64,000 nt of DNA from Phycisphaerales bacterium (GCA_020847375.1 JADLCB010000002.1:11877-75876); one strand, 5' to 3'. Positions 25,754 to 59,496 are shown, counted from the first letter of the stretch. Numbers and translations: made by a program. Notes: generated by a model not told the origin, from the sequence alone.

Positions 25754-25922
25754 CAGGGAGTACCCCAGGACAAACGCAAGTAGGTGTCCGATAGGCAATC
25801 TCTTTACGAGCCGCGACCGTAAGAGAGCGGTTTTTGAGCCGATCACCGCTCCCTGACGGTCGCGGCTCGTTAATACATCGACCATCGCGGGCTACTTGCG
25901 TTCGCCCTGGGAGAGTACCCTG
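25754..25922. repeat. REP-like nested palindromic element, copy A
   Basis: Inner arms ACGAGCCGCGACCGTAAGAGAGCGG / CCGCTCCCTGACGGTCGCGGCTCGT surround the loop TTTTTGAGCCGATCA. Outer arms are CGCAAGTAG / CTACTTGCG. The same family recurs at 52.3, 54.0-54.4, 55.0-55.2 and 56.5 kb. Confidence 0.85.
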
Positions 25923-46425: not shown

Positions 46426-47508
46426 TCAACCGCCCGGGCCTTTGCCATTAAACACAGGCAGATAACGGTTGGGCATCTGCAGCACAATCAAGGCACAGGC
46501 GGTGCTGTATTCCTGACTGATTTCCCCGACAAACGCGCCCGTTTTCTGATCCTGACGGATGTTGATCAGTTCATCGCGCACGGGGGGATACCAGTTGCTC
46601 CACCAGTTGCCGCCGGCCAGAAACATCGCCTGGACGGCATAATAGTGACCGTAATAGTAATGCGGAAATTTTTCCGTTTTCATCCGACCCGGTTGAAACT
46701 GGCTGACATACTGCAGGGCGTGTGTCAGATCATCACCCTGAAACACACCCGCGTAGTACAACGTCGCCGCACCAGCCGCCGAGCGCTCAAAGGCGCTGAC
46801 ACCGGCATTATTGGCGATATACCTGAATCCGCCGTCTGCGTTCTGGCAACGACGCACATACGCCAGCGCCCGTTGCATCACCTGCGGGTCAACGTTCAAT
46901 CCCGCATCGATCGCGCCGCGCAGCGCCATGACCTGGCAGATGGTGACGGAAATATCCGCATCCAGCGGTACCGGCGTATATCGCCAGCCCCCCTCGCTGT
47001 TTTGACTTTGAATAATGAGGGCCACGGCTTTATGCAGTTTTTCGCCGACGCGCGGATCAGCCGTCATGCCGTAGACCTGGCTGAGAAACAACGTGGCGTA
47101 TCCGTGGGCATACATCGCGCCGCGCGCCAATTGCGGCGCCAGCAAACCCGATTCCTTCGCGATGTTGCAGAAATAATCGACCGCCGCCGCAACCACCGAA
47201 CCATACTGCCCGCGCCCGGGCAGGTGTCCAGCGGACATGAATGCCAAACCCGCCAGGGCTGTGGTGGCGGGAACATCGCCGTAACCATGATCGACGCCAA
47301 ATGATCCATCAGCCAGTTGGTGGCTGGCCAGCCACGCCAACCCGCGCGCAATCGCCTGCTGCGCCTGTGGGGTCAGCTCATCACCGACCACCTGGCTTGG
47401 CTGGGCGGCGATAACCCGGTCATCCGCCGAGGCCGATGAGATCATCGCCACCAGCGAGGCGCTCATCGCCACCATAACGGTCAGTTTTTGCAGGGAACGT
47501 CGATTCAT
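46426..47508 (-). CDS. Prenyltransferase / squalene-oxidase repeat protein (secreted)
   Basis: 360 aa with a signal peptide and repeated alpha-alpha toroid motifs (QLADGSFG, QNSEGGWRY, QNADGGFRY). Its start overlaps the stop of the upstream gene (ATGA). Confidence 0.75.
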   Translation of the reverse strand: MNRRSLQKLTVMVAMSASLVAMISSASADDRVIAAQPSQVVGDELTPQAQQAIARGLAWLASHQLADGSFGVDHGYGDVPATTALAGLAFMSAGHLPGRGQYGSVVAAAVDYFCNIAKESGLLAPQLARGAMYAHGYATLFLSQVYGMTADPRVGEKLHKAVALIIQSQNSEGGWRYTPVPLDADISVTICQVMALRGAIDAGLNVDPQVMQRALAYVRRCQNADGGFRYIANNAGVSAFERSAAGAATLYYAGVFQGDDLTHALQYVSQFQPGRMKTEKFPHYYYGHYYAVQAMFLAGGNWWSNWYPPVRDELINIRQDQKTGAFVGEISQEYSTACALIVLQMPNRYLPVFNGKGPGG

Positions 47509-50500
47509 TTTTCCCCACCTGACTCGCCGGCCAGGGCGCGATAATAATCATCGGTAACGGTTTTATACTGCTCGATAGGCTGCTCGAAATTACCCTCGAT
47601 CAAATCCTGATCGCGCAAGCGCGGGGCAATTTGCAGGAGATGTTCGCGCAGATCATCCAAGGCAATGCCGGATCGACCAACCACAACGCCCGGCGACGCT
47701 GAATCAGAAGCAGAAGCCGCTGACGAGGTTTGCTGCGCCAAACGATCGGTCTGACCAGCGGCTGGCGCCATCTGCTGCGCCGGGCCAGACTGGCTGGACG
47801 AGCTGGGCGACGCTGCCTGACTCGATTGCTGTGCACTGGCGCTGGCTGGGACTGATTGACCCTGCCCGCTTGACTGCATCGGCGGCGAATTTGGTGCTGA
47901 ACCGGCTGATGACTGGGCGCTGGCGGATGAGGTCAACTGCTGATCCAGTGCTGCGATCAACTGATCGAGCTGGTTGACAATTTCACCCTGGTGCGACTGC
48001 ACCATCTCATCCGTGTGCGCCAGCGCCAGTTGCTGCTGCACCTGATCCATATTGGCGGCGATTTGCTGATTGGCCTGGGCCATCGCCCCGCTGAGCGTCG
48101 GGAGCAGTTCCGCCTGCAATTGCTGCATCTGCTGCGCCAGTTGCCCCTGCGCCGGCGCCAGTTGCGATTTAACCATCAGTTCATGGGCACGACTCAGCAG
48201 CCCCCTGTCATTGCGCTGCGCCTGCATTGCCTGCGTCGGCTGATTGATCCTGTTGATCTGCTGATCACGAATGGCTGCATAATGCTGGCGCAGGTTCACG
48301 AGTTGTTGAAGTTGTTGCCAAGACTCTGATGATGCCTGCTGCTGTTGACTTGTTTGCTGCATCTGTGGCATCGACCGTCGCGGCAACAGCGCATCATTCG
48401 GCTGCTGACCCAGTGCTTCGAGCATGGCGGCTAGACCGGACGCAGCATCGTGCTGACTGGTGCTGGTCTGCCCCTGCAGATTCTGCCCCAGCGCCGCCTG
48501 CGCCTGTTGTTGATGGGCGGGCACAGCGTGCTCATGACCGACCGCCACCGACAGCGCCAGCCTCGTCGCCGTTGCCGGGTCCGCCATGTGCAACCGGGTT
48601 GCATCCCGCTGCATCTGATCGATGGTTGATTGCGTCTGATCAGCCAGCCCCCCCTGCTCCTGCGCCAATTCGCGCAACTGCCGACGATCCTGATCGTTCA
48701 TCTGATCGGGCGACAAACCAAGATTTTGCTGACCCAGTTGACCTGTCTGTTGGATCAGTTGTTGCTGGTTCTGCAACAATTGGGTCAGACGGGCCTGCGC
48801 CAATTGAATGGCGCCGGCGCGATCCAGTTGCGCCAGCGCCTGATTGAGTTGATCGGCAGCGCGCAACTGATCCTGATTCGCCTGCGCCAGTTGCCGGGCC
48901 AATTCCGCTGCGTCGCGCGCCGACTGACGGGCCGAGTCGATTCGATCCGCCGCTGGCTTCATCAATTGTTGCGCGGTTTGATCGAGCAGGCGCGCAACCT
49001 CTGCGGCGCTCTGCTGCAAATCACCCGCCTGGGATCGATTATCCTTCATCCGCCCCAGCAGTCGGTGCAACTGCCCGGCCAGTTGCCGCGTCTGATCGGC
49101 GATGGCTGATTGCCGATCGGCCAGACGCTGGGCGCTGGACTGATCGGACGAATCGAGCGCTGGTTTATCCGCGGTTGAGCTGGCCAGTTGGCGCGTCTGC
49201 TGAGAGGCAGCCTCCTGCTGCTTTTTCAATTCCATCAACCGCTGTTTTTGCAACTGCAACTGAACCGCGATCTGCCCCGCCAACTCCTGCTGGGTGACAA
49301 TCGTGATGCGCAATCGTCCGCTGGCCGCAGGCTCGTGACGCTGCCCATCCAGCGCGAAGTTGTCGCGCGCTTCCAGGTGATATTCCAGCACATCGCCGCT
49401 GCGCAGGTGGGCATCGGTCAACTGCGCCAGTGGCCACACCCAGACCATCTGGTAACGCTGACGACCCGCCGGCGCAGCAAGCGATTGCCACGACACCAGC
49501 GGCGCGGGCTGGGCATCGCGCAGCAGATCGATTTCCCATCGCTGCTGATCGCGCTGACGCTGCACGATGAGTTTGAGATCGGCGAGACCAAAATCATCCT
49601 CAGCTGCCGCCTGCAGCGTGATCTGCGCCTCGGGCGTATTGGACTGATCGGCGCGCGGCGATTCGATGTACACCAGCGGCGGTTGGTCGGCGCGCACCAT
49701 CCACTGAAACTGCTGCGGGGCTGGATTGGTAAAACCATCAACATCATGCGCCTCGATACCAAAGCGCAGTGACTGGTCGATACGAGCCGAGCCCACCGCC
49801 TGCGCCGGGGCAGCATAGGTCCAATCAAACGGCGGTGGCGCAGATGACTCAACGGACAACAGATGAATCGGTCGATCAACCTCCAGCGGCCGATTGAACG
49901 ACAACGACAACTGCATCGATGAACCGGCTGTTAATACGGGCACGGTCGTCGCCAGATCCACGTGGGTTGGTTGCTGCGGCGCATACGGTGGCGGGAGGAT
50001 CAACGCCTGCGCCTGCTGGATGAGCAGTTGCGGAACGATGATGACGGGCGGCAATAACAGGCGATCATCACCCGATTCCACCCAGGCGCGCAGCACGCGG
50101 GATTGCCTGACCGCATCAGCGCCGGTCTCCAGGGCCGCAGTCAATGTTCCATCGGTGGCGCGGGCCATCGCCACGTCGCGCAGCGGCGCATCATCCAACT
50201 GATAGTGAACCCGCGCAACGGCTGACGGAAAATCGCCCTTGACCAATTTCACGCGCACAGGGACAGACTGTCCGGCGGGCAGACGATCCGGCCACGGCCC
50301 GGCCAGGGCGATGTTGGTTCGGCGCGGCCAGTCCGGGGCATGCAACGGCGAAAAAATCCGCAACAGCGCTGTGTCACGATAGACCCGCGGCACCAGCAGC
50401 GCCACCAGCAACAACAGCGCCACCGCGCCCCCAGCCCCGGCGCAGGAATATAAAACCGGCCGACCGGTCAGGGCGCGGCGCAGATCGACCTGCCCGGCTA

Positions 50501-50897
50501 GTTGAACCGTCTGGGCAATGACCCGGTTTTTTAATTCATCACGATCCGGCGCACCGGCGCCCAGAAAATTCACCGTGCTGCGCAGCCGGTCTTCAAACTG
50601 CGGAAAGACTTGCTCCAGATGCTGCGCCACATCATCCAGCGTCAACCGGCTGGTCAGGGGCGCCAAAACAAAACGCCCCAGCCACCAGGTCCAGACCCCC
50701 ACCGCGGCGCAAAGCATCACCAGACGCGGGCCAGCCGGTAAATTCAAAAGATAATCCACCGACGCCAACAGCAGCACCAGCCCCACCGCGACAACGCCGG
50801 CCAGGCCCAGCCCCCAGAGCATCCCCATGAACCGGATGCGCCGGCGCACCGCTTTGAGCAGGGTAAGTAACCGGATTGGCGGGGTGGTTTGACTCAT
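47505..50897 (-). CDS. Giant membrane-anchored protein with a Gln-rich coiled-coil C-terminal half (DUF4175-like)
   Basis: About 1130 aa from the ATG at 50897 (MSQTTPPIRLL...). It has two N-terminal TM helices and a beta-rich middle region. The C-terminal roughly 500 aa are dominated by Q/A/L heptad-like low complexity, with a Ser/Ala/Gln tail. Confidence 0.65.
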   Translation of the reverse strand: MSQTTPPIRLLTLLKAVRRRIRFMGMLWGLGLAGVVAVGLVLLLASVDYLLNLPAGPRLVMLCAAVGVWTWWLGRFVLAPLTSRLTLDDVAQHLEQVFPQFEDRLRSTVNFLGAGAPDRDELKNRVIAQTVQLAGQVDLRRALTGRPVLYSCAGAGGAVALLLLVALLVPRVYRDTALLRIFSPLHAPDWPRRTNIALAGPWPDRLPAGQSVPVRVKLVKGDFPSAVARVHYQLDDAPLRDVAMARATDGTLTAALETGADAVRQSRVLRAWVESGDDRLLLPPVIIVPQLLIQQAQALILPPPYAPQQPTHVDLATTVPVLTAGSSMQLSLSFNRPLEVDRPIHLLSVESSAPPPFDWTYAAPAQAVGSARIDQSLRFGIEAHDVDGFTNPAPQQFQWMVRADQPPLVYIESPRADQSNTPEAQITLQAAAEDDFGLADLKLIVQRQRDQQRWEIDLLRDAQPAPLVSWQSLAAPAGRQRYQMVWVWPLAQLTDAHLRSGDVLEYHLEARDNFALDGQRHEPAASGRLRITIVTQQELAGQIAVQLQLQKQRLMELKKQQEAASQQTRQLASSTADKPALDSSDQSSAQRLADRQSAIADQTRQLAGQLHRLLGRMKDNRSQAGDLQQSAAEVARLLDQTAQQLMKPAADRIDSARQSARDAAELARQLAQANQDQLRAADQLNQALAQLDRAGAIQLAQARLTQLLQNQQQLIQQTGQLGQQNLGLSPDQMNDQDRRQLRELAQEQGGLADQTQSTIDQMQRDATRLHMADPATATRLALSVAVGHEHAVPAHQQQAQAALGQNLQGQTSTSQHDAASGLAAMLEALGQQPNDALLPRRSMPQMQQTSQQQQASSESWQQLQQLVNLRQHYAAIRDQQINRINQPTQAMQAQRNDRGLLSRAHELMVKSQLAPAQGQLAQQMQQLQAELLPTLSGAMAQANQQIAANMDQVQQQLALAHTDEMVQSHQGEIVNQLDQLIAALDQQLTSSASAQSSAGSAPNSPPMQSSGQGQSVPASASAQQSSQAASPSSSSQSGPAQQMAPAAGQTDRLAQQTSSAASASDSASPGVVVGRSGIALDDLREHLLQIAPRLRDQDLIEGNFEQPIEQYKTVTDDYYRALAGESGGEK

Positions 50898-51189
50898 ATC
50901 GACCTGTTGATACGAACCGGTTCCGGTTGGATCAGGCAGTTGTCCGATAATACAATACCGTGGTCGCGTAAAAGTTGTACGTTCAATGTGGTGGCTGGTT
51001 CGAGACGCGCCAACAACGATCCGGGCAGGCGATGGATGCGCGACGCGAATCGGCTTGAACAAGTTATCGGCGATTACGGACGTTGTGGCCGCTGGTCAAT
51101 CAGCCGATAATCCCTGATAAGGCGTCTGATCAGACAAGCAATCAACCCGCGCAGCGCACAGCGCAGCAAGCCAGGTCAACGGATCGATC

Positions 51190-52336: not shown

Positions 52337-52438
52337 TTACGAGCCGCGACCGTGAGGGAGCGGTTTTGAGCCGATCCCCGCTCCCTCACGGTCGCGGCTC
52401 GTTAATACATCGACTCTCGCGGGCTACGTGCGATTGCC
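52337..52438. repeat. REP-like palindromic element, copy B
   Basis: A perfect 25-bp stem, ACGAGCCGCGACCGTGAGGGAGCGG (52339-52363) / CCGCTCCCTCACGGTCGCGGCTCGT (52378-52402), has a 14-nt loop and starts 11 nt after the kinase stop. The right-hand tail is TAATACATCGACTCTCGCGGGCTACGTGCGATTGCC. Confidence 0.9.
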
Positions 52439-54026: not shown

Positions 54027-54404
54027 GATCACCGCTCCCTGACGGTCGCGGCTCGTTAATACATCGACCCTTGCGGACTACTGGCGATTGATCACCGCTC
54101 CCTGACGGTCGCGGCTCGTTCATACATCGACCCTTGCGGACTACTTGCGATTGATCACCGCTCCCTGACGGTCGCGGCTCGTTAATACATCAACCCTTGC
54201 GGGCTACTGGCGATTGATCACCGCTCCCTGACGGATGCGGCTCGTTCATACATCGACCCGCGCGGACTACTGGCGATTGATCACCGCTCCCTGACGGTCG
54301 CGGCTCGTTCATACATCAACCCGCGCGGGCTACTTGCGATTGATCACCGCTCCCTGACGGTTGCGGCTCGTTCATACATCGACCCGCGCGGACTACTTGC
54401 GATT
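54027..54404 (+). repeat. Phased tandem array, 6 x 63 bp, built from the right half of the REP-like element
   Basis: Units start at 54027, 54090, 54153, 54216, 54279 and 54342, exactly 63 bp apart. The consensus is GATCACCGCTCCCTGACGGTCGCGGCTCGTT(A/C)ATACATC(G/A)ACCC(TT/GC)GCGG(A/G)CTACT(G/T)GCGATT. A truncated left arm, CTCTTACGAG, precedes unit 1. Confidence 0.95.
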
Positions 54405-54440
54405 GCCCTGGATCGGGGGAGAAGAAAAAATATTTTATAC

Positions 54441-54468
54441 TTGACATTTCCCTAACATCGGTTAAGGT
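54441..54468 (+). promoter_or_regulatory. Candidate promoter for the HTH/ATPase/GNAT/TerL cassette
   Basis: -35 TTGACA (54441-54446), 16-nt spacer, -10 TAAGGT (54463-54468). It lies in a short AT-rich patch right after the tandem array and about 130 nt upstream of the first ORF. Confidence 0.35.
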
Positions 54469-54595
54469 TAGGTTGTCTTATCTTGGGGGGATTGATTCAG
54501 CGCAGCGGGCGCTGAAATCGTTATGGAACGGGTCGTGATCGGGAACACCGCACGACGGGGCAACAGATGGGAAAATCATTTCCCGGGGTGAAATC

Positions 54596-54997
54596 ATGGT
54601 TCATGGGATCAATTATGCGGATGTGGAACAGGCGCAGCAGACATTGTTGCAGCGGGCGCGATATCTGGCGCCACGCGATACGGTGCTGGTGCAAAACGCG
54701 CTTGAACGAAAACTGACGAATGTGCAGATTGGGCGGATCGTGGGACGGCATCCGGGGAATGTCGGTCGGCGGGTGCATCGATTGTTGCGGCGGTTGAACG
54801 AACCGTCGATTGTGTTGCTGATCGATTATGGCAACCAATTCCCCAGGGAACTGTACGACGCGGGGATCGAACGTCATGTCCGGGGGTTGAGTCTGGCTGC
54901 CATTGCGCAGAAACATGGGATCAGCCGCAATGAGGTGCGCGAACGCTTGGCGCAGTTGCGGGGATGCCTGCGCACATTTCGGCGCTTCGGTCGCTAA
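54596..54997 (+). CDS. Small DNA-binding protein with two sigma-70-region-4-like HTH units (TerS-like role possible)
   Basis: 133 aa with LTNVQIGRIVGRHPGNVGRRVHRLLRRL and LSLAAIAQKHGISRNEVRERLAQLRGCL. There is no sigma region 2. Confidence 0.6.
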   Translation: MVHGINYADVEQAQQTLLQRARYLAPRDTVLVQNALERKLTNVQIGRIVGRHPGNVGRRVHRLLRRLNEPSIVLLIDYGNQFPRELYDAGIERHVRGLSLAAIAQKHGISRNEVRERLAQLRGCLRTFRRFGR

Positions 54998-55019
54998 GGC
55001 GCCCACGGGTGGATTGTGG

Positions 55020-55194
55020 GTTGATTCGGCGTAGCGCTGCATGGGGGCGGTTTTTGAACCGATCACCGCTGCCTTACGGCCGCGGCTCGTTAATACATCG
55101 ATCCTTGCGGGTTACTTGCGATTGCCCTGCCGATCACCGCTACCTTACGGTCGCGGCTCGTTAATACACCGACCCGCGCGGGCTACTTGCGATT
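55020..55194. repeat. REP-like element, copy D (degenerate left arm plus two tandem right-half units)
   Basis: GATCACCGCTGCCTTACGGCCGCGGCTCGTTAATACATCG... starts at 55061 and GATCACCGCTACCTTACGGTCGCGGCTCGTTAATACACCG... at 55132. It lies between the HTH gene and the ATPase gene. Confidence 0.85.
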
Positions 55195-55228
55195 GTTCTG
55201 GTTTTTTACACGTCGAGAGGGTTTTGTC

Positions 55229-55855
55229 ATGTCATCACGAACGGATCTGGTTCGCCAATGGTTTGGCGTAGGGCAGTTGCAGGCAGCGCCGATGATTCCG
55301 GTGGATTCTACCCTGCCCAAGATCGAGGCTGGGCAGATTGTTTTGATCACCGGCGCCAGTGGTTCAGGCAAGACGACACTTTTACGCCGAATTACGGATC
55401 AGTGGCCGGGCGAAGTGGTGGATATTGACCGGATCGAGTTTCCCGCCGGGGCAGCGGTGGATTGTTTTGGGTCAATGCCGCTGGAGCAGGTGCTGGAAAT
55501 TTTGGGGCGTTGCGGGCTGGGGGAAGTCTGGACCTATCTCAGTCCGGCGGGTCGGTTGTCGCAAGGTCAGCAGTGGCGTTTGCGTCTGGCGATGGCGCTG
55601 GGGCAGGGCCGGATGAATCGTCCGGCGAAGCTGGCTGAAACGGGGAAGGTTCAACTATTGGTCAGCGATGAGTTTGCCGCGATTCTGGATCGGGTGACGG
55701 CGTGCGTGGTCGGGCGCATGCTGCGCAAAATGTTCAACGGTCAGCAGCCGGTGGCGATGGTCTGTTGCACCAGTCAGGATGATCTGGCAGGCGCGCTCAA
55801 GCCCGATATCACCATCACCTGCGATTTCGGTCAGTTGCAGATCGTGGGGCGCTGA
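55229..55855 (+). CDS. Minimal soluble ABC-type ATPase (no transmembrane partner)
   Basis: About 208 aa from the ATG at 55229, with GAGAGGG upstream. The longer ORF-track start lies inside the REP element. It has Walker A ITGASGSGKTTLL, signature-like LSQGQQWRLRLA and Walker B LLVSDEFAAILD. The canonical H-loop His was not seen. Confidence 0.7.
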   Translation: MSSRTDLVRQWFGVGQLQAAPMIPVDSTLPKIEAGQIVLITGASGSGKTTLLRRITDQWPGEVVDIDRIEFPAGAAVDCFGSMPLEQVLEILGRCGLGEVWTYLSPAGRLSQGQQWRLRLAMALGQGRMNRPAKLAETGKVQLLVSDEFAAILDRVTACVVGRMLRKMFNGQQPVAMVCCTSQDDLAGALKPDITITCDFGQLQIVGR

Positions 55856-55934
55856 AGCGCGCCGGCGCATGACGGGGCTGGGCTGGGCTGGACTGGACGG
55901 ATTGGGCTGATCGGGGGAACGCCTTTCGGGGGGA

Positions 55935-56522
55935 TTGATGATGTTCAAACCAGATAATTATGCCTTTTTACCCGGGTCGATCACGTTTGCGCCAGGTTGC
56001 TGGGGGGATTATCTGGCGCTGCAGCGGTTTCATTATCGTTGCGGCGCGCCGGCGACGGTGGCGAAAATTGTCAGCGCCTGTTACCAGCCCGTCAGTGGCT
56101 GTGCGATTGGGCAAAACAGCGCTGTGAGGGTTGTCGGGGTGGCGGTGTTGTCGTGGCCGATTCCCAATGCCGGTGCGCGGAATCGTTATTTTGGTTGGGG
56201 CAATCTGTCACCGTCGCAACGGGCGCACCAGGCCAACGCGCAGGTGCGCACGATCAGCCGGGTGATTGTTCATCCGCAGTTCCGCGGTATCGGATTGGCC
56301 AGCGAACTGGTGCGGTTGATGATCGAGCGTTGTCCGGTGCGTTATGTCGAGGCGCTGGCGCATCTGGGCCGGTTTCACCCCTTTTTTCTCAAGGCGGGCA
56401 TGACCTGCCTGGACGCGGGCGACGAAAAACGGGCAGCCTATTTCCTGATTGACCGGTTGGGACGGGCAGGGCAATCGCAAGTAGCCCGCGAGGGTCGAAG
56501 TATTAACGAGCCGCGACCGTGA
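55935..56522 (+). CDS. GNAT-like acyltransferase
   Basis: 195 aa with the acyl-CoA-binding loop pattern ISRVIVHPQFRGIGLASELVRLM. The last ~17 codons (AGQSQVAREGRSINEPRP) are contributed by REP copy E. Confidence 0.6.
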   Translation: MMMFKPDNYAFLPGSITFAPGCWGDYLALQRFHYRCGAPATVAKIVSACYQPVSGCAIGQNSAVRVVGVAVLSWPIPNAGARNRYFGWGNLSPSQRAHQANAQVRTISRVIVHPQFRGIGLASELVRLMIERCPVRYVEALAHLGRFHPFFLKAGMTCLDAGDEKRAAYFLIDRLGRAGQSQVAREGRSINEPRP

Positions 56523-56606
56523 GGGAGCGGGGATCGGCTCAAAAACCGCTCCCTAACGGTCGTGGCTCGTAAGAGATTACCTATCGGACGCCTACTTGCA
56601 TTTGCC
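56467..56606. repeat. REP-like nested palindromic element, copy E (inverted orientation)
   Basis: Outer arms are GGGCAATCGCAAGTAG / CTACTTGCATTTGCCC. Inner arms are AACGAGCCGCGACCGTGAGGGAGCGG / CCGCTCCCTAACGGTCGTGGCTCGT. The loop GGATCGGCTCAAAAA is the reverse complement of the loop in copies A and B. Confidence 0.9.
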
Positions 56607-56658
56607 CGGTCGGGACGGGGCATTGAATGAATTGTCCATTGTAAAAGGATCAATAACC

Positions 56659-58131
56659 ATGAGTGATGGGGTGTATGGTCAATTGACGACTCCTGAGGGG
56701 CTGCACCGCTGGATTGGGCAGCATCTGGAATTGCAGATCAGCCGCCGGGCGGTCTGCCCGGGGCATAGCGCGCCATTTGAATATCTGGTGCGGTCTTATT
56801 TCGAGCCGTCGCAGGATATGGTGGTCTGGGCGCCGCGCGGCGGTGGCAAGACGCGGCTGGCGGCGATTGCGACGCTATTGGATCTGATTCATAAACCCGG
56901 GTTGAAGGTCTGTATTCTGGGCGGAAGTCTGGATCAATCCAAGCATGTCTGGTGGCATTTGCTGGATGATCTGCAGCGCCTGGGGGTTGAGCTGAACCAG
57001 GGGCGCAGCCGGCGGTTGCAACTGGAAAACGGGTCGCTGGCGACGATTTTGGCGCAGTCGCAGACGAGTGTGCGCGGTCAGCGGGTGCAGAAGCTGCGTT
57101 GTGATGAGGTGGATCTGTTTGACCCGGATGTGCTGGAGGCGGCGCAACTGGTCACACGCAGTTTGACCATTGCGCCCGTGTCAACACAGGAAAGGCCGGG
57201 GTTGATTGCTCCGCTGGGAAAACAGGCGGAACATCAACAGGTGGTGCGCGGGGCGGTGGAGCTGATTTCGACGTTTCACCATCAACATGGCCCGATGGCG
57301 CAGCAGGTGGAACTGGCGCGGGCCAGCGGCCGACCGATTGTACACTGGTGTTTGATGGAGGTGCTGGAGCGCTGCCCGGCCGAGCGATCCTGCGAGGGTT
57401 GCCCGCTGTGGGAGGAGTGCCGGGGGGTCGCCAAACACTCCTGTGATGGGCATTTGAAAATCGACGATGCGATCAGCCTGAAGCAGCGTGTCAGCGTCGA
57501 TACCTGGCAATCGGAGCTGCTGTGCCGGCGGCCACGGGTGCGGGGCCGGGTGTTTGACGCATTTGATCGGTCGGTGCATGTGAAAGAAACGTGTGGGGAC
57601 GAAACAGCGGCGGACGCACAGATGAGTCTGGGGATGGATTTTGGTTATGCCAATCCGTTCGTCTGTTTATGGGTTAGAAAAATTGGGGCGATGGTTCATG
57701 TGATGGATGAATATGTGCAAAGGCAAAAGACGCTGGATGCGCATCTGGATGAGATTCAACAGCGCAGCGGTTGGGGGAAAATCACGCAGGTGCATTGCGA
57801 TCCGGCTGGCGGGGCGCGCAACGAACAGACAGCGCGATCGAGCATTGATCTATTGAGACGGCGCGGGTATCGGGTTTTGTATCGGCGCAGCCAGATTGTC
57901 GAGGGTTTGGAGCTGGTGCGCAGTGCGCTGCAACCGGCCTGGGGACAGCCGCGGCTGGCGATTCATCCGCGCTGCCAGCACTTGATCGAAGCCATGGAAA
58001 ATTATCGATATCCTGATGGAGGTGGGGAGTTGCCGCTGAAGGATGGGGTTTATGACCACCCGATGGACGCGCTGCGGTATTGGTTTATTAACGCCCGGCG
58101 CGGCGGGCTGGTCGAGGTGCTGCGGTATTGA
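56659..58131 (+). CDS. Terminase-large-subunit-like ATPase/nuclease (orphan TerL)
   Basis: About 490 aa from the ATG at 56659. It has Walker A VWAPRGGGKTRLAA, Walker B KLRCDEVDLF, and the coupling-like motif ELISTF. A Cys-rich insert reads CPAERSCEGCPLWEEC. The RNase-H-like nuclease half carries GMDFGYANPFVCLWV, VHCDPAGGARN and YDHPMDALRYW. Confidence 0.8.
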   Translation: MSDGVYGQLTTPEGLHRWIGQHLELQISRRAVCPGHSAPFEYLVRSYFEPSQDMVVWAPRGGGKTRLAAIATLLDLIHKPGLKVCILGGSLDQSKHVWWHLLDDLQRLGVELNQGRSRRLQLENGSLATILAQSQTSVRGQRVQKLRCDEVDLFDPDVLEAAQLVTRSLTIAPVSTQERPGLIAPLGKQAEHQQVVRGAVELISTFHHQHGPMAQQVELARASGRPIVHWCLMEVLERCPAERSCEGCPLWEECRGVAKHSCDGHLKIDDAISLKQRVSVDTWQSELLCRRPRVRGRVFDAFDRSVHVKETCGDETAADAQMSLGMDFGYANPFVCLWVRKIGAMVHVMDEYVQRQKTLDAHLDEIQQRSGWGKITQVHCDPAGGARNEQTARSSIDLLRRRGYRVLYRRSQIVEGLELVRSALQPAWGQPRLAIHPRCQHLIEAMENYRYPDGGGELPLKDGVYDHPMDALRYWFINARRGGLVEVLRY

Positions 58132-58614
58132 ACCGTGAACAGGGACGGATCGAAAACAAAAGCATGATTGCGTCAGGAAAATTATTGATTATAATGCTCC
58201 ATATTGATTTGTAAATTGTTATTTTGCAATATGTTATGACTTTTTTACTGTCATTTGATTTGATTCCGTACTGATCATTTCAGATTTATTTTTCAGGCCG
58301 TTTTGGGTTGGCGTTGGATCCGATCCAAGGGAGGGAAATAGAGATTTATGCCACATGGCAATGGCGTCCGATAAGCAGATAGGTTTGAGCACGAAAAAGG
58401 TGCGTCAAAGCAGGCTTGAGATCGGGTGTGCTTTGACGAAAACGGACGAATGCCTATGATAATAGGGCTATCAGTCTGACACGGGTAGACACTGAATCAT
58501 GGACGTTCAGCACCGGAGGTTCTTTCGGTGAGCGTAGGACAGGCCGATAAAATCCACGGATTTTATATCGGTTGACAGGGAAGCATCCCGGCCAGTGTTT
58601 GAACGAGAGAAAAT

Positions 58615-59496
58615 ATGATTGTCGATTGTCATACCCATATTTGGCAAAGCCCTGAACAGCTTGGTTCGCTGGAACTGGGCGAGACGGTTCGATCATCACG
58701 TACCAAGCCGCAGCCGCGCGTTTCGCTGGGTCGATCCAACTGGCGAAACACCCCCGCTGCTGATGCCGATCATCACTGGGCGCAGACTTCGGCGGTGGAT
58801 AAGAGCATTGTGCTGGGTTTTAAGAGCCGGTACATGCAGGCGGAGATTCCCAACGTTTACGTGGCGGATTATGTCAAGCGTTTTCCGCAGAAGTTGATCG
58901 GATTTGCGGGTATTGATCCAACGGAGTCGGCGGCGGTTGAGGAAGTGAATCTGGCCAAGACGGAACTGCAACTCAGCGGGATTACCATCAGCCCGGCCAA
59001 TCAGGATTTTCATCCTTGTGATACGCGGGCGATGAATGTGTACGCCGAGGCGGAAAAACTGGGCATGCCGGTGTTGTGTCACTTCGGCGGTCAATTCACG
59101 CAGAACAGCAAGTTGGAATATGCCCGGCCTTATCTGTTTGATGAAGTGGCACGGACGTTTCCGAACCTGAAACTGGTGATCGCGCAGATGGGTCAGCCGT
59201 GGGTGGATGAGACCATTACGCTGCTGGGCAAGCATCAGAATATTTACGCGGATGTTTCCGGGCTGCTGGGCCGGCCGTGGCAGGCGTATAACGCGCTGGT
59301 CTGCGCGTATCAGTATGATGTGATCGACAAGCTGCTGTTCGGCAGCGATTTTCCCTACACCAGCGCCAATGAGTGCATCGAAGCGCTCTACAGCATCAAC
59401 CAGATCGCGCAGGGGACGAACCTGCCGGTGGTTCCGCGGGAAAGCCTGCGCGGGATCATTGAGCGTGATGCGTTGTCGTTGCTGGGTCTGGAGTGA
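58615..59496 (+). CDS. Amidohydrolase-family (TIM-barrel metal-dependent hydrolase) protein
   Basis: 293 aa with the N-terminal metal-ligand motif MIVDCHTHIW, then VLCHFGG and GSDFPY. Confidence 0.8.
   Translation: MIVDCHTHIWQSPEQLGSLELGETVRSSRTKPQPRVSLGRSNWRNTPAADADHHWAQTSAVDKSIVLGFKSRYMQAEIPNVYVADYVKRFPQKLIGFAGIDPTESAAVEEVNLAKTELQLSGITISPANQDFHPCDTRAMNVYAEAEKLGMPVLCHFGGQFTQNSKLEYARPYLFDEVARTFPNLKLVIAQMGQPWVDETITLLGKHQNIYADVSGLLGRPWQAYNALVCAYQYDVIDKLLFGSDFPYTSANECIEALYSINQIAQGTNLPVVPRESLRGIIERDALSLLGLE

Follow-up and report, generated by a model that had tools for sequence, protein, structure and literature searches.

A terminase-centred four-gene cassette of Planctomycetota as a candidate packaging operon of a dispersed, gene transfer agent-like element

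We analysed a 64,000-nucleotide stretch of DNA from a Phycisphaerales bacterium (GCA_020847375.1, JADLCB010000002.1:11877-75876; hereafter, the window), and in particular a cassette at positions 54441-58131, in which genes encoding a small helix-turn-helix (HTH) protein, an ABC-type ATPase, a GNAT acyltransferase and a large terminase subunit (TerL) follow one another. The cassette is best read as the packaging operon of a domesticated, dispersed and vertically inherited gene transfer agent (GTA)-like element of Planctomycetota, an interpretation to which we assign a probability of roughly 0.6. The partner of this operon would be a separate head operon, the products of which are a portal of the SPP1 type, a scaffold-like protein, a capsid protein of the SU10/DUF5309 type and four small proteins, among them a membrane protein and a lipoprotein. 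The head operon would lie elsewhere in most genomes, apparently also in this one.

The cassette and its products

An original prediction, made from the window sequence alone, had proposed four same-strand open reading frames (ORFs) behind a candidate promoter. All four ORFs are present:

54441-54473, + strand: candidate promoter/operator box, composed of a -35 element TTGACA (54441-54446), CCTAACA (54451-54457), a -10-like TAAGGT (54463-54468) and GTTAGG (54467-54472), the last inverted relative to CCTAAC
54596-54997, + strand: HTH protein, 133 aa
55229-55855, + strand: ABC-type ATPase, 208 aa
55935-56522, + strand: GNAT acyltransferase, 195 aa
56659-58131, + strand: TerL, 490 aa

The motifs quoted in the prediction (GASGSGKTT, LSQGQQWR, LLVSDEF, RVIVHPQFRGIGLASELV, APRGGGKT, KLRCDEVDLF, DFGYANPF, HCDPAG and DHPMDALRY) are all found in the translations. 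Profile searches upheld the four family assignments, as did fold searches for the GNAT and TerL proteins. The window TerL is identical to a protein (P0001) of a Phycisphaerales metagenome-assembled genome (MAG).

TerL has a packaging ATPase at its N terminus and an RNase-H-like nuclease at its C terminus, with a Cys-rich insert (residues 231-262) in between. The protein matches PHROG terminase families down to 3e-18 (PHROG 2), its homologues carry the Pfam domain Terminase_6C, and a profile search against solved structures retrieved the phage D6E terminase at 5e-8. The predicted structure has a predicted local distance difference test (pLDDT) score of 81; large terminases make up its best 38 fold matches, with D6E (5.7e-18) followed by T4 gp17 and HK97 in the Foldseek ranking. 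Matches of the ATPase domain include D6E, T4 gp17 and P74-26, and those of the nuclease domain D6E, SPP1, P22 and G20c. The hallmark residues, judged intact in the prediction, are invariant in an alignment of 25 homologues, both in the Walker A (APRGGGKT) and Walker B (KLRCDE) motifs and at the nuclease acidic positions D327, D381, D466 and D470. The Cys-rich insert (57349-57444; WC-x7-C-x5-C-x2-C-x5-C-x7-C), located between the ATPase and nuclease domains, is modelled at a pLDDT of ~90. Five of its six Cys residues are invariant, and the sixth is found in at least 90% of the 25 homologues. The insert is clade-specific, is missing from the SSU5 TerL and may be a metal-binding site, a feature that fits well neither the GTA-like interpretation nor any of its rivals.

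The ATPase, a soluble protein, belongs to the Pfam family ABC_tran, matches PHROG 11143 at 4e-19 and, when its family profile is compared with solved ABC nucleotide-binding domains, scores 1e-24. The Walker A, LSxGQ signature and Walker B DEF motifs are intact. As stated in the prediction, the gene is not adjacent to a permease gene, and none was found among the recurrent families of 54 related ATPase-bearing loci; the partner of the ATPase is the GNAT. The latter exceeds the cut-off of Pfam Acetyltransf_1, matches PHROG 886 at 4e-8 and keeps the acetyl-CoA loop HPQFRGxGLA. Translation of the GNAT probably starts at ATG 55938 or 55941, and the last ~18 codons of the ORF run into one of the repeats described below. 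In an AlphaFold model based on 44 homologues (pLDDT 87.6, predicted template modelling score 0.83), the top fold matches are all GNATs, TmcA (2zpa) being the best at 7.7e-6, followed by Naa50, AtaT, YhbS, RimI and NAT10.

An exhaustive profile search retrieved 1,611 cluster representatives of the GNAT family at E <= 0.001. The best 150 of these include ten ATPase-GNAT fusions of 419-579 aa, one GNAT-ParB fusion and one truncated GNAT-TerL protein (the fusion proteins are numbered within P0451-P0500, P0481 among them). Moreover, a single 715-aa ORF at locus L025 (1248-3395) encodes a GNAT, a Pro-rich linker and TerL, and a GNAT-TerL ORF arranged in the same manner is found at L044 (2074-4032). 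Because of these fusions and of the conserved adjacency to TerL, we regard the ATPase and the GNAT as one functional unit, which the fused genes indicate to be physically associated with the terminase. Motifs and fusions alike show the ABC ATPase and GNAT modules either joined in a single protein or encoded side by side. Proteins named "ABC-type ATPase with predicted acetyltransferase domain" are found in JGI and phage records, and we take this name to denote COG2401. The fold matches to TmcA, NAT10 and AtaT hint at a nucleic-acid-directed, ATP-coupled acyltransferase, although their scores do not stand apart from those of other GNATs.

The HTH protein consists of two HTH units similar to region 4 of sigma-70 factors, with matches to Pfam Sigma70_r4_2 and to an HTH_AsnC-type domain above cut-offs; no match to sigma-70 region 2 was found in the protein. 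Its score against NCBIfam sigma70-ECF (1.6e-9) is under the cut-off of that model, only the C-terminal positions of which are covered. Among PHROG families, anti-terminator-Q-like and regulator families are matched at ~3e-6, and small terminases only at E >= 0.17. Among solved structures, the family profile best matches region 4 of RpoE (an extracytoplasmic function, ECF, sigma factor), WhiG and FliA-type sigma factors. The HTH gene is the first of the operon in 46 related loci. These similarities make the protein a likely transcriptional activator of the system, a role as small terminase (TerS) being less likely. Two genes separate the HTH gene from TerL, and in relatives the TerS position directly 5' of TerL is filled by p149, an optional ~150-aa protein. 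Homology of either the HTH protein or p149 to TerS-like DNA-binding proteins of phages was considered and found unsupported (hhalign probabilities of 11% and 3.6%, respectively).

Recurrence, inheritance and the head operon

A protein search retrieved at least 3,130 TerL homologues, the best 120 of which are 50-62% identical to the query, derive in many instances from Phycisphaerae and are carried on contigs of up to 5.5 Mb. A scan of one genome per GTDB species placed TerL relatives in at least 495 genomes. The best 80 of these genomes are 80 different assemblies, that of the cultured Fontivita pretiosa included, and nearly all are labelled, by the MAG submitters themselves, as Tepidisphaerales, Phycisphaerales, Sedimentisphaerales, Pirellulales or plain Planctomycetota. 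Only 2 of the 2.9 million IMG/VR viral contigs carry a TerL relative. In the better-matching of the two (L092, IMGVR_UViG_3300034175_000195), TerL ends at query residue ~272, and the sequence past the stop matches none of the families of the system. This TerL gene is probably interrupted by an insertion, and the inserted element may be what was called viral.

Hidden Markov models (HMMs) of the families were built and run on the 80 genomic TerL loci. The modal order is HTH, ATPase, GNAT and TerL, observed in 33 of the 48 loci with at least 4 kb of upstream sequence and in 20 of the 29 loci flanked by 9 kb or more on each side. The cassette, termed "orphan" in the prediction, thus has relatives in hundreds of species and a recurrent order, and the neighbourhood census that the same prediction had proposed revealed that the four families recur together at related loci. 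Besides p149, optional members are p173, a Zn-ribbon protein encoded on the opposite strand, and, in one subclade, a ParB_N protein encoded after the GNAT.

The genes are under purifying selection, another check proposed at the outset. Pairwise ratios of nonsynonymous to synonymous substitution rates (dN/dS), some of which are inflated by over-long ORF calls, range from 0.09 to 0.48 over all four genes, the same range holding for the HTH (0.12-0.42), ATPase (0.10-0.46) and GNAT genes taken together, and from 0.09 to 0.28 for TerL. In pairs of closely related loci, the chromosomal flanks are syntenic and about as diverged as TerL; identities of flanks and TerL are 88.5% and 89-94%, 84% and 77-95%, 82% and 76-86%, and 71% and 73-81% in the four pairs. 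The G+C content of the cassette is that of its flanks. Low dN/dS values, syntenic flanks that diverge along with TerL, and matching G+C content together indicate a resident gene set, rather than a mobile or decaying prophage.

The link to head genes was revealed by related loci. In a 5.5-Mb Tepidisphaeraceae contig (L001), the four genes lead directly into a run comprising genes for an SPP1-type portal, one small protein and an SU10/DUF5309-type major capsid protein, and then four small ORFs. Portal and capsid genes similarly adjoin TerL at L002, L018, L096 and other loci. The assignments are supported by Pfam and PHROG matches (SU10_MCP at 2e-85, portal at 2e-18); the other, small proteins of the head operon had no significant match in either database. 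The order of the head operon is portal, scaffold-like protein, capsid, p222, p88, p141 and p84. Head genes map within 10 kb of TerL in 3 of the 29 well-flanked loci (~10%), either downstream, upstream or on the other strand. According to the original prediction, orthologous loci that continue into portal and capsid genes would make the cassette a truncated prophage. Such continuation, not seen in the window, occurs in those ~10% of loci and in related viral contigs, but the chromosomal loci are not truncated prophages, as their flanks are cellular and no recognisable tail, integrase or lysis enzyme gene is found within the fetched +/-10 kb.

The capsid family equals that of TerL in size and conservation, with at least 4,572 homologues that are 53-60% identical. 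The head operon normally stands alone between housekeeping genes (L089, L091 and L177-L179). TerL and capsid genes are 47 kb apart on contig Ga0078972_1000077, and map to different contigs of the same assembly in CAYVKG (L048 and L177) and JBIQLO (L036 and L179). In several metagenomic loci, the HTH, ATPase and GNAT genes adjoin the head operon in the absence of TerL. Viral contigs encoding capsid proteins of 37-40% identity carry a TerL gene of this family 3-6 kb upstream of the capsid gene; because TerL lies near the capsid gene in these related viral contigs, the packaging and head modules share one phage ancestry.

Two of the small head-operon proteins (encoded, for instance, in the operons at L089:11896-12699 and L001:15535-16223) have membrane-related features. 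In p88, a short hydrophobic segment precedes a coiled-coil-like region, and p141 has a Cys-ended, lipobox-like signal peptide in all seven members read. Judging from these features, p88 and p141 could be spanin-like release factors or membrane anchors. Their presence in place of tail genes fits well neither the GTA-like interpretation nor the alternatives. A longer version of the head operon, with about ten more genes on the same strand, is found in sediment and freshwater metagenomes (L156:4536-11744, L151, L164, L170 and L134). The additional genes include those for a homologue of the fibre protein gp80 of podophage GP4 (6e-45), a Laminin_G_3 lectin-fold protein and proteins with Ig-like domains; they may be tail or fibre genes with no counterpart in the Tepidisphaerales version.

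The ATPase and GNAT genes have counterparts in bona fide phages. A tblastn search of annotated phages retrieved both in SSU5-like phage-plasmids, in Pseudomonas Nickievirus and in Rhizobium phages. The order there is one or more ParB-like genes, ABC ATPase, a small ORF, an acyltransferase-type protein of ~295 aa, a small ORF, a DNA-binding protein, TerL, portal and capsid. The ~295-aa protein is annotated as "ABC-type ATPase fused to a predicted acyltransferase domain". HMMs of the planctomycete families match SSU5 proteins at 9e-50 (ATPase), 3e-25 (GNAT) and 2e-31 (TerL). As conserved members of packaging modules in real phages, the ATPase and the GNAT are not morons. Consequently, the suggestion that the cassette is a relic packaging module with two moron genes does not hold, the more so as its genes are under purifying selection, and neither does the statement that the combination can be assigned to no mobile element.

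The candidate promoter of the prediction proved to be a site conserved across loci. The pattern TTGAC-N5..22-CTAAC occurs 5' of the HTH gene in 22 of 46 loci (shuffled sequences: mean 0.2, maximum 2), and CCTAAC or ACCTAA in 32 of 46 (shuffled: mean 5.7). The signal emerged from cross-species k-mer conservation, an analysis in which no CCTAAC-type box was found 5' of portal and TerL genes. The -10 element is weak, and a generic scan for sigma-70 promoters and terminators, the sites of which are no commoner than chance, did not call the site. A CI/LexA-like gene (HTH_3 and Peptidase_S24 domains) is located upstream of the HTH gene, in divergent orientation, in 11 loci, including the closest relative of the window copy (L006). 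At L177 (6709-7542), a CI/LexA-like S24 repressor gene is found directly 5' of the portal gene and not beside the packaging operon. Portal genes are preceded by another conserved box, ACGCGCA/TGCGCGC, often repeated, in 31 of 43 loci (shuffled: mean 3.8), which takes the forms AAACGCGCA / TGCGCGCGCA and AAACGCGCA / TTGCGCGCGCAA (for instance in L156, L097 and L134). The difference between this box and CCTAACA suggests a separate late promoter.

The data are consistent with the following model. The operon would be driven by a sigma-70-type promoter containing the CCTAACA box, which motif and gene conservation suggest to be controlled, in many relatives, by the adjoining divergent CI/LexA-like S24 repressor; the latter might confer induction by DNA damage. 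The double-HTH protein would act as a trans-activator, a factor that a head operon located far away and preceded by its own, different conserved box would require. A cascade in which a repressor-guarded early promoter is coupled to a sigma-region-4-like factor acting on the late box is plausible for a dispersed regulon. The ATPase and the GNAT would constitute one ATP-dependent acyltransferase attached to the packaging machinery, and TerL, as predicted from its fold and intact catalytic residues, would cut DNA and pump it into procapsids. No single particle could take up the complete set of these scattered genes; any particles formed would therefore make the system behave as a GTA (viriform) and not as a virus. 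On this model, particles would form and this MAG would still have a head operon.

Genomic surroundings and repeats

The cassette flanks and the remainder of the window read as housekeeping genes, in keeping with the description of the flanks in the prediction as ordinary chromosomal genes. The neighbours of the cassette encode an APH-family phosphotransferase, a DUF1559 pseudopilin-like protein, an amidohydrolase, a protein similar to dihydroorotate dehydrogenase (DHODH) and a pyruvate:ferredoxin oxidoreductase; flagellar rod, PhoH, UppS, PurE, ComEC, CoaE and Rho genes map farther off. No tRNA gene is present in the 64 kb. Integrase or replication genes were not seen near the cassette, the integrase search of the whole window being not exhaustive.

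The GC skew ranges from +0.18 to +0.24 across positions 55000-59000 and is close to zero in most of the window. TerL is followed by a non-coding, AT-richer stretch of ~480 bp (58132-58614; G+C 0.50 in the 58-59 kb interval), which holds two of the three sigma-70-like consensus matches of the scanned region, one on each strand. Upstream of the cassette, positions 47505-51062 (- strand) encode a Gln/Ala-rich protein of 1,185 aa with a weak match to DUF4175, which appears unrelated.

Repeats similar to repetitive extragenic palindromic (REP) elements occur both upstream of the cassette and within it:

54027..54405, + strand: tandem REP-like array (Tandem Repeats Finder: period 63, 6.0 copies, 93% matches)
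55052..55200, + strand: two direct REP units between the HTH and ATPase genes (period 71, 1.9 copies)
56506..56570, no strand assigned: inverted REP pair, located between the GNAT and TerL genes, that folds into a 24-bp hairpin and overlaps the last GNAT codons

The unit of ~63 nt is found also at 25806-25870 and 52339-52402. Overall, the window holds 14 matches to the repeat core, compared with 0 expected, and 10 of the 14 lie in or around the cassette. The repeats come as a six-copy tandem array, as direct pairs and as inverted pairs, the last forming hairpins of 24-25 bp (-51 to -58 kcal/mol) at gene 3' ends. The hairpin at 56506-56570 has a folding energy of -51.1 kcal/mol (z = -8.1) and is not followed by a T-run; a hairpin of the same kind (-57.6 kcal/mol) at 52339-52402 is located 3' of the gene for the APH-family phosphotransferase. 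A single unit of the pair at 55052-55200 folds no better than shuffled sequence. The tandem array occupies the spot in which the divergent CI/LexA-like repressor gene is found in L006 and in the ten other loci. Translation of the element yields spurious "SPLPYGRGSLI" ORFs. The repeats were also considered as a known RNA or as CRISPR, and both were rejected, since no Rfam family was matched at threshold and whole units are repeated without spacers. We treat the 63-nt repeats as a genome-wide REP-like element that is specific to this genome.

Alternative explanations and known systems

Several observations weigh against the GTA-like interpretation. Searches of the 64 kb by tblastn and, on all ORFs of at least 45 aa, by family HMMs found no portal, capsid or head-accessory homologue, in agreement with the prediction, and this genome may be devoid of a head operon. 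Direct sightings of TerL and capsid genes in one genome come from no more than a handful of assemblies. None of the genes beside the Tepidisphaerales-type head operon was recognised as a tail gene, and the route of DNA delivery is not evident. The window copy lacks three genes that are common in relatives, namely those for the CI-like repressor, the Zn-ribbon protein p173 and p149. Because a strong hairpin separates the GNAT and TerL genes, co-transcription of all four is not assured. The ATPase has Gln at the H-loop position, where ABC proteins have His. The taxonomic spread relies on submitters' labels. Finally, a full-text literature search turned up neither a description of such a system in Planctomycetota nor one of an association of ATPase, GNAT and terminase.

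One alternative is that the packaging operon of an ancient prophage has been exapted to work without capsids, for instance as an ATP-driven DNA translocase or nuclease in repair, chromosome maintenance or some other process of the cell, regulated by the ATPase-GNAT pair. We consider such an exaptation unlikely, although less so than the other rivals. It would agree with the lack of head genes within 10 kb in ~90% of the well-flanked loci and in the window, with purifying selection on all four genes, with the failure to find tail genes, and with the clade-specific Cys-rich insert of TerL, which suggests a change of function. However, the head operon is equally conserved, is found in the same taxa and, in each case that could be checked, in the same assemblies as TerL, and recurs beside either TerL or the HTH, ATPase and GNAT genes in varied arrangements. 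Shared taxa, shared assemblies and varied adjacency are hard to explain unless the two modules still work together. A neutral, decaying cryptic prophage is very improbable. Although structural genes are missing from the window, several genes of relatives are missing from this copy and REP elements have invaded all its intergenic regions, the ORFs are intact, as the prediction had argued, and their catalytic residues invariant in a family spread over hundreds of species. Moreover, dN/dS values are well under 1, G+C content matches that of the flanks, frequent frameshifts or stops among orthologues were not seen, and neither contiguous phage modules nor pseudogenised remains of them were found in the window.

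A compact cassette of ATPase, nuclease and modifier genes with no structural genes nearby resembles a defence island, and the original prediction had envisaged a defence or self/non-self system with TerL as effector nuclease, the ATPase as sensor and the GNAT as modifier. This possibility is improbable. No PADLOC-DB 2.0 family was matched by the HTH, GNAT or TerL protein, and the matches of the ATPase, to mad3, PtuA and similar proteins, cover only the ~25 residues of the P-loop. The ATPase-GNAT-TerL order lies within the morphogenesis modules of real phages, and neighbourhood and ancestry tie the cassette to portal and capsid genes. Defence islands are patchy and mobile, whereas the 80 best genomes are 80 assemblies, in which close relatives have the cassette at a common chromosomal position. 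The prediction had also proposed a satellite or GTA-like packaging module, and it is the GTA-like half of this proposal that we favour; the satellite half is unsupported, given vertical inheritance at syntenic positions, the 80 separate assemblies behind the 80 best genome hits, and the lack of an integrase or replication gene close to the cassette. A fragment of an active temperate phage, or a helper-dependent, capsid-forming satellite, is quite improbable: the family is nearly absent from viral-contig collections, no integrase, replication or tRNA gene was seen near the cassette, the flanks are syntenic and diverged to about the same extent as TerL, and housekeeping genes lie between TerL and head genes, an arrangement that a packaged mobile genome would not tolerate. 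A still-mobile element would, in turn, account for the CI-like repressor gene beside the operon in relatives, for head genes that, without tail genes, recall capsid-forming satellites, and for the fibre (GP4 gp80, 6e-45) and lectin-fold proteins of the longer clusters from sediment metagenomes.

The GTA-like element proposed here does not amount to a new category: clear phage homologues exist for every part, and in its overall logic it follows known GTAs. Its interest lies in the phylum-wide spread, the occurrence in a lineage with no known GTA, and the unexplained enzymatic accessory of the packaging motor. To our knowledge, GTAs have been described from few lineages only, and none in Planctomycetota was encountered in the literature search. 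If the interpretation is correct, hundreds of species carry a new, independently domesticated, virus-derived machine comprising terminase, portal and capsid, through which genes could pass horizontally among Planctomycetota of soil and fresh water, organisms with an unusual cell biology and few genetic tools. As a tentative extension, which we hold to be possible but somewhat doubtful, the family would be a phylum-wide, SOS-type-regulated, dispersed capsid-terminase system not described before, perhaps tail-less and membrane-associated in its Tepidisphaerales form, the terminase of which would work with an ATP-dependent acyltransferase (ABC ATPase and TmcA-like GNAT) that modifies the packaged DNA or the machinery, an activity that would have escaped notice in the related siphophages too. 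Between groups as far apart as enterobacterial phage-plasmids and Planctomycetota, an ABC ATPase, a GNAT and a terminase have stayed associated, a link that gene fusions strengthen and that raises the testable question of whether an ATP-dependent acyltransferase serves some packaging motors. Experiments are within reach in cultured carriers, F. pretiosa among them.

Known systems share some, but not all, features of the cassette. The SSU5-like phages, Nickievirus and Rhizobium phage RHph_N1_10, siphophages of ~100-115 kb, have the same gene families in the same order. Unlike the cassette, they are complete mobile viruses with tails and replication genes; their TerL is only ~22% identical to the window TerL and lacks the Cys-rich insert, and their capsid protein is not of the SU10 type. 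The coupling of a P-loop ATPase to a GNAT is reminiscent of TmcA and NAT10, which are ATP-dependent RNA cytidine acetyltransferases. In contrast to these enzymes, the ATPase is of the ABC type and not a RecD-like helicase, is a separate polypeptide in the window and is not accompanied by a tRNA-binding domain; moreover, the fold score of TmcA is barely apart from those of many other GNATs. Capsid-forming phage-inducible chromosomal islands (cf-PICIs) are tail-less but have genes for terminase, portal, capsid and head completion, and the combination of head genes and terminase without a tail is found here as well. However, cf-PICIs are contiguous mobile islands with integrase, regulatory and replication genes, whereas the present set is dispersed, syntenic and vertically inherited.

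The closest parallels are RcGTA of Rhodobacter capsulatus and the GTA of Caulobacter crescentus. The present system differs from both in belonging to another phylum, in its SU10/DUF5309 capsid lineage, in a packaging module featuring ParB, ABC ATPase and GNAT, in the CI/LexA-like repressor that adjoins the operon in relatives, and in a Tepidisphaerales-type head operon next to which tail genes were not found. As in these GTAs, phage-derived head and packaging genes are chromosomally fixed, vertically inherited and under purifying selection, and are distributed over several loci devoid of integrase and replication genes: in Planctomycetota, no such module was seen near the loci, and TerL and capsid genes are either 47 kb apart or on separate contigs. 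The plausible sigma-region-4-like or anti-terminator-like activator would, likewise, be comparable to the GTA activators GafA and GafYZ (PMC6363796, PMC11150451).

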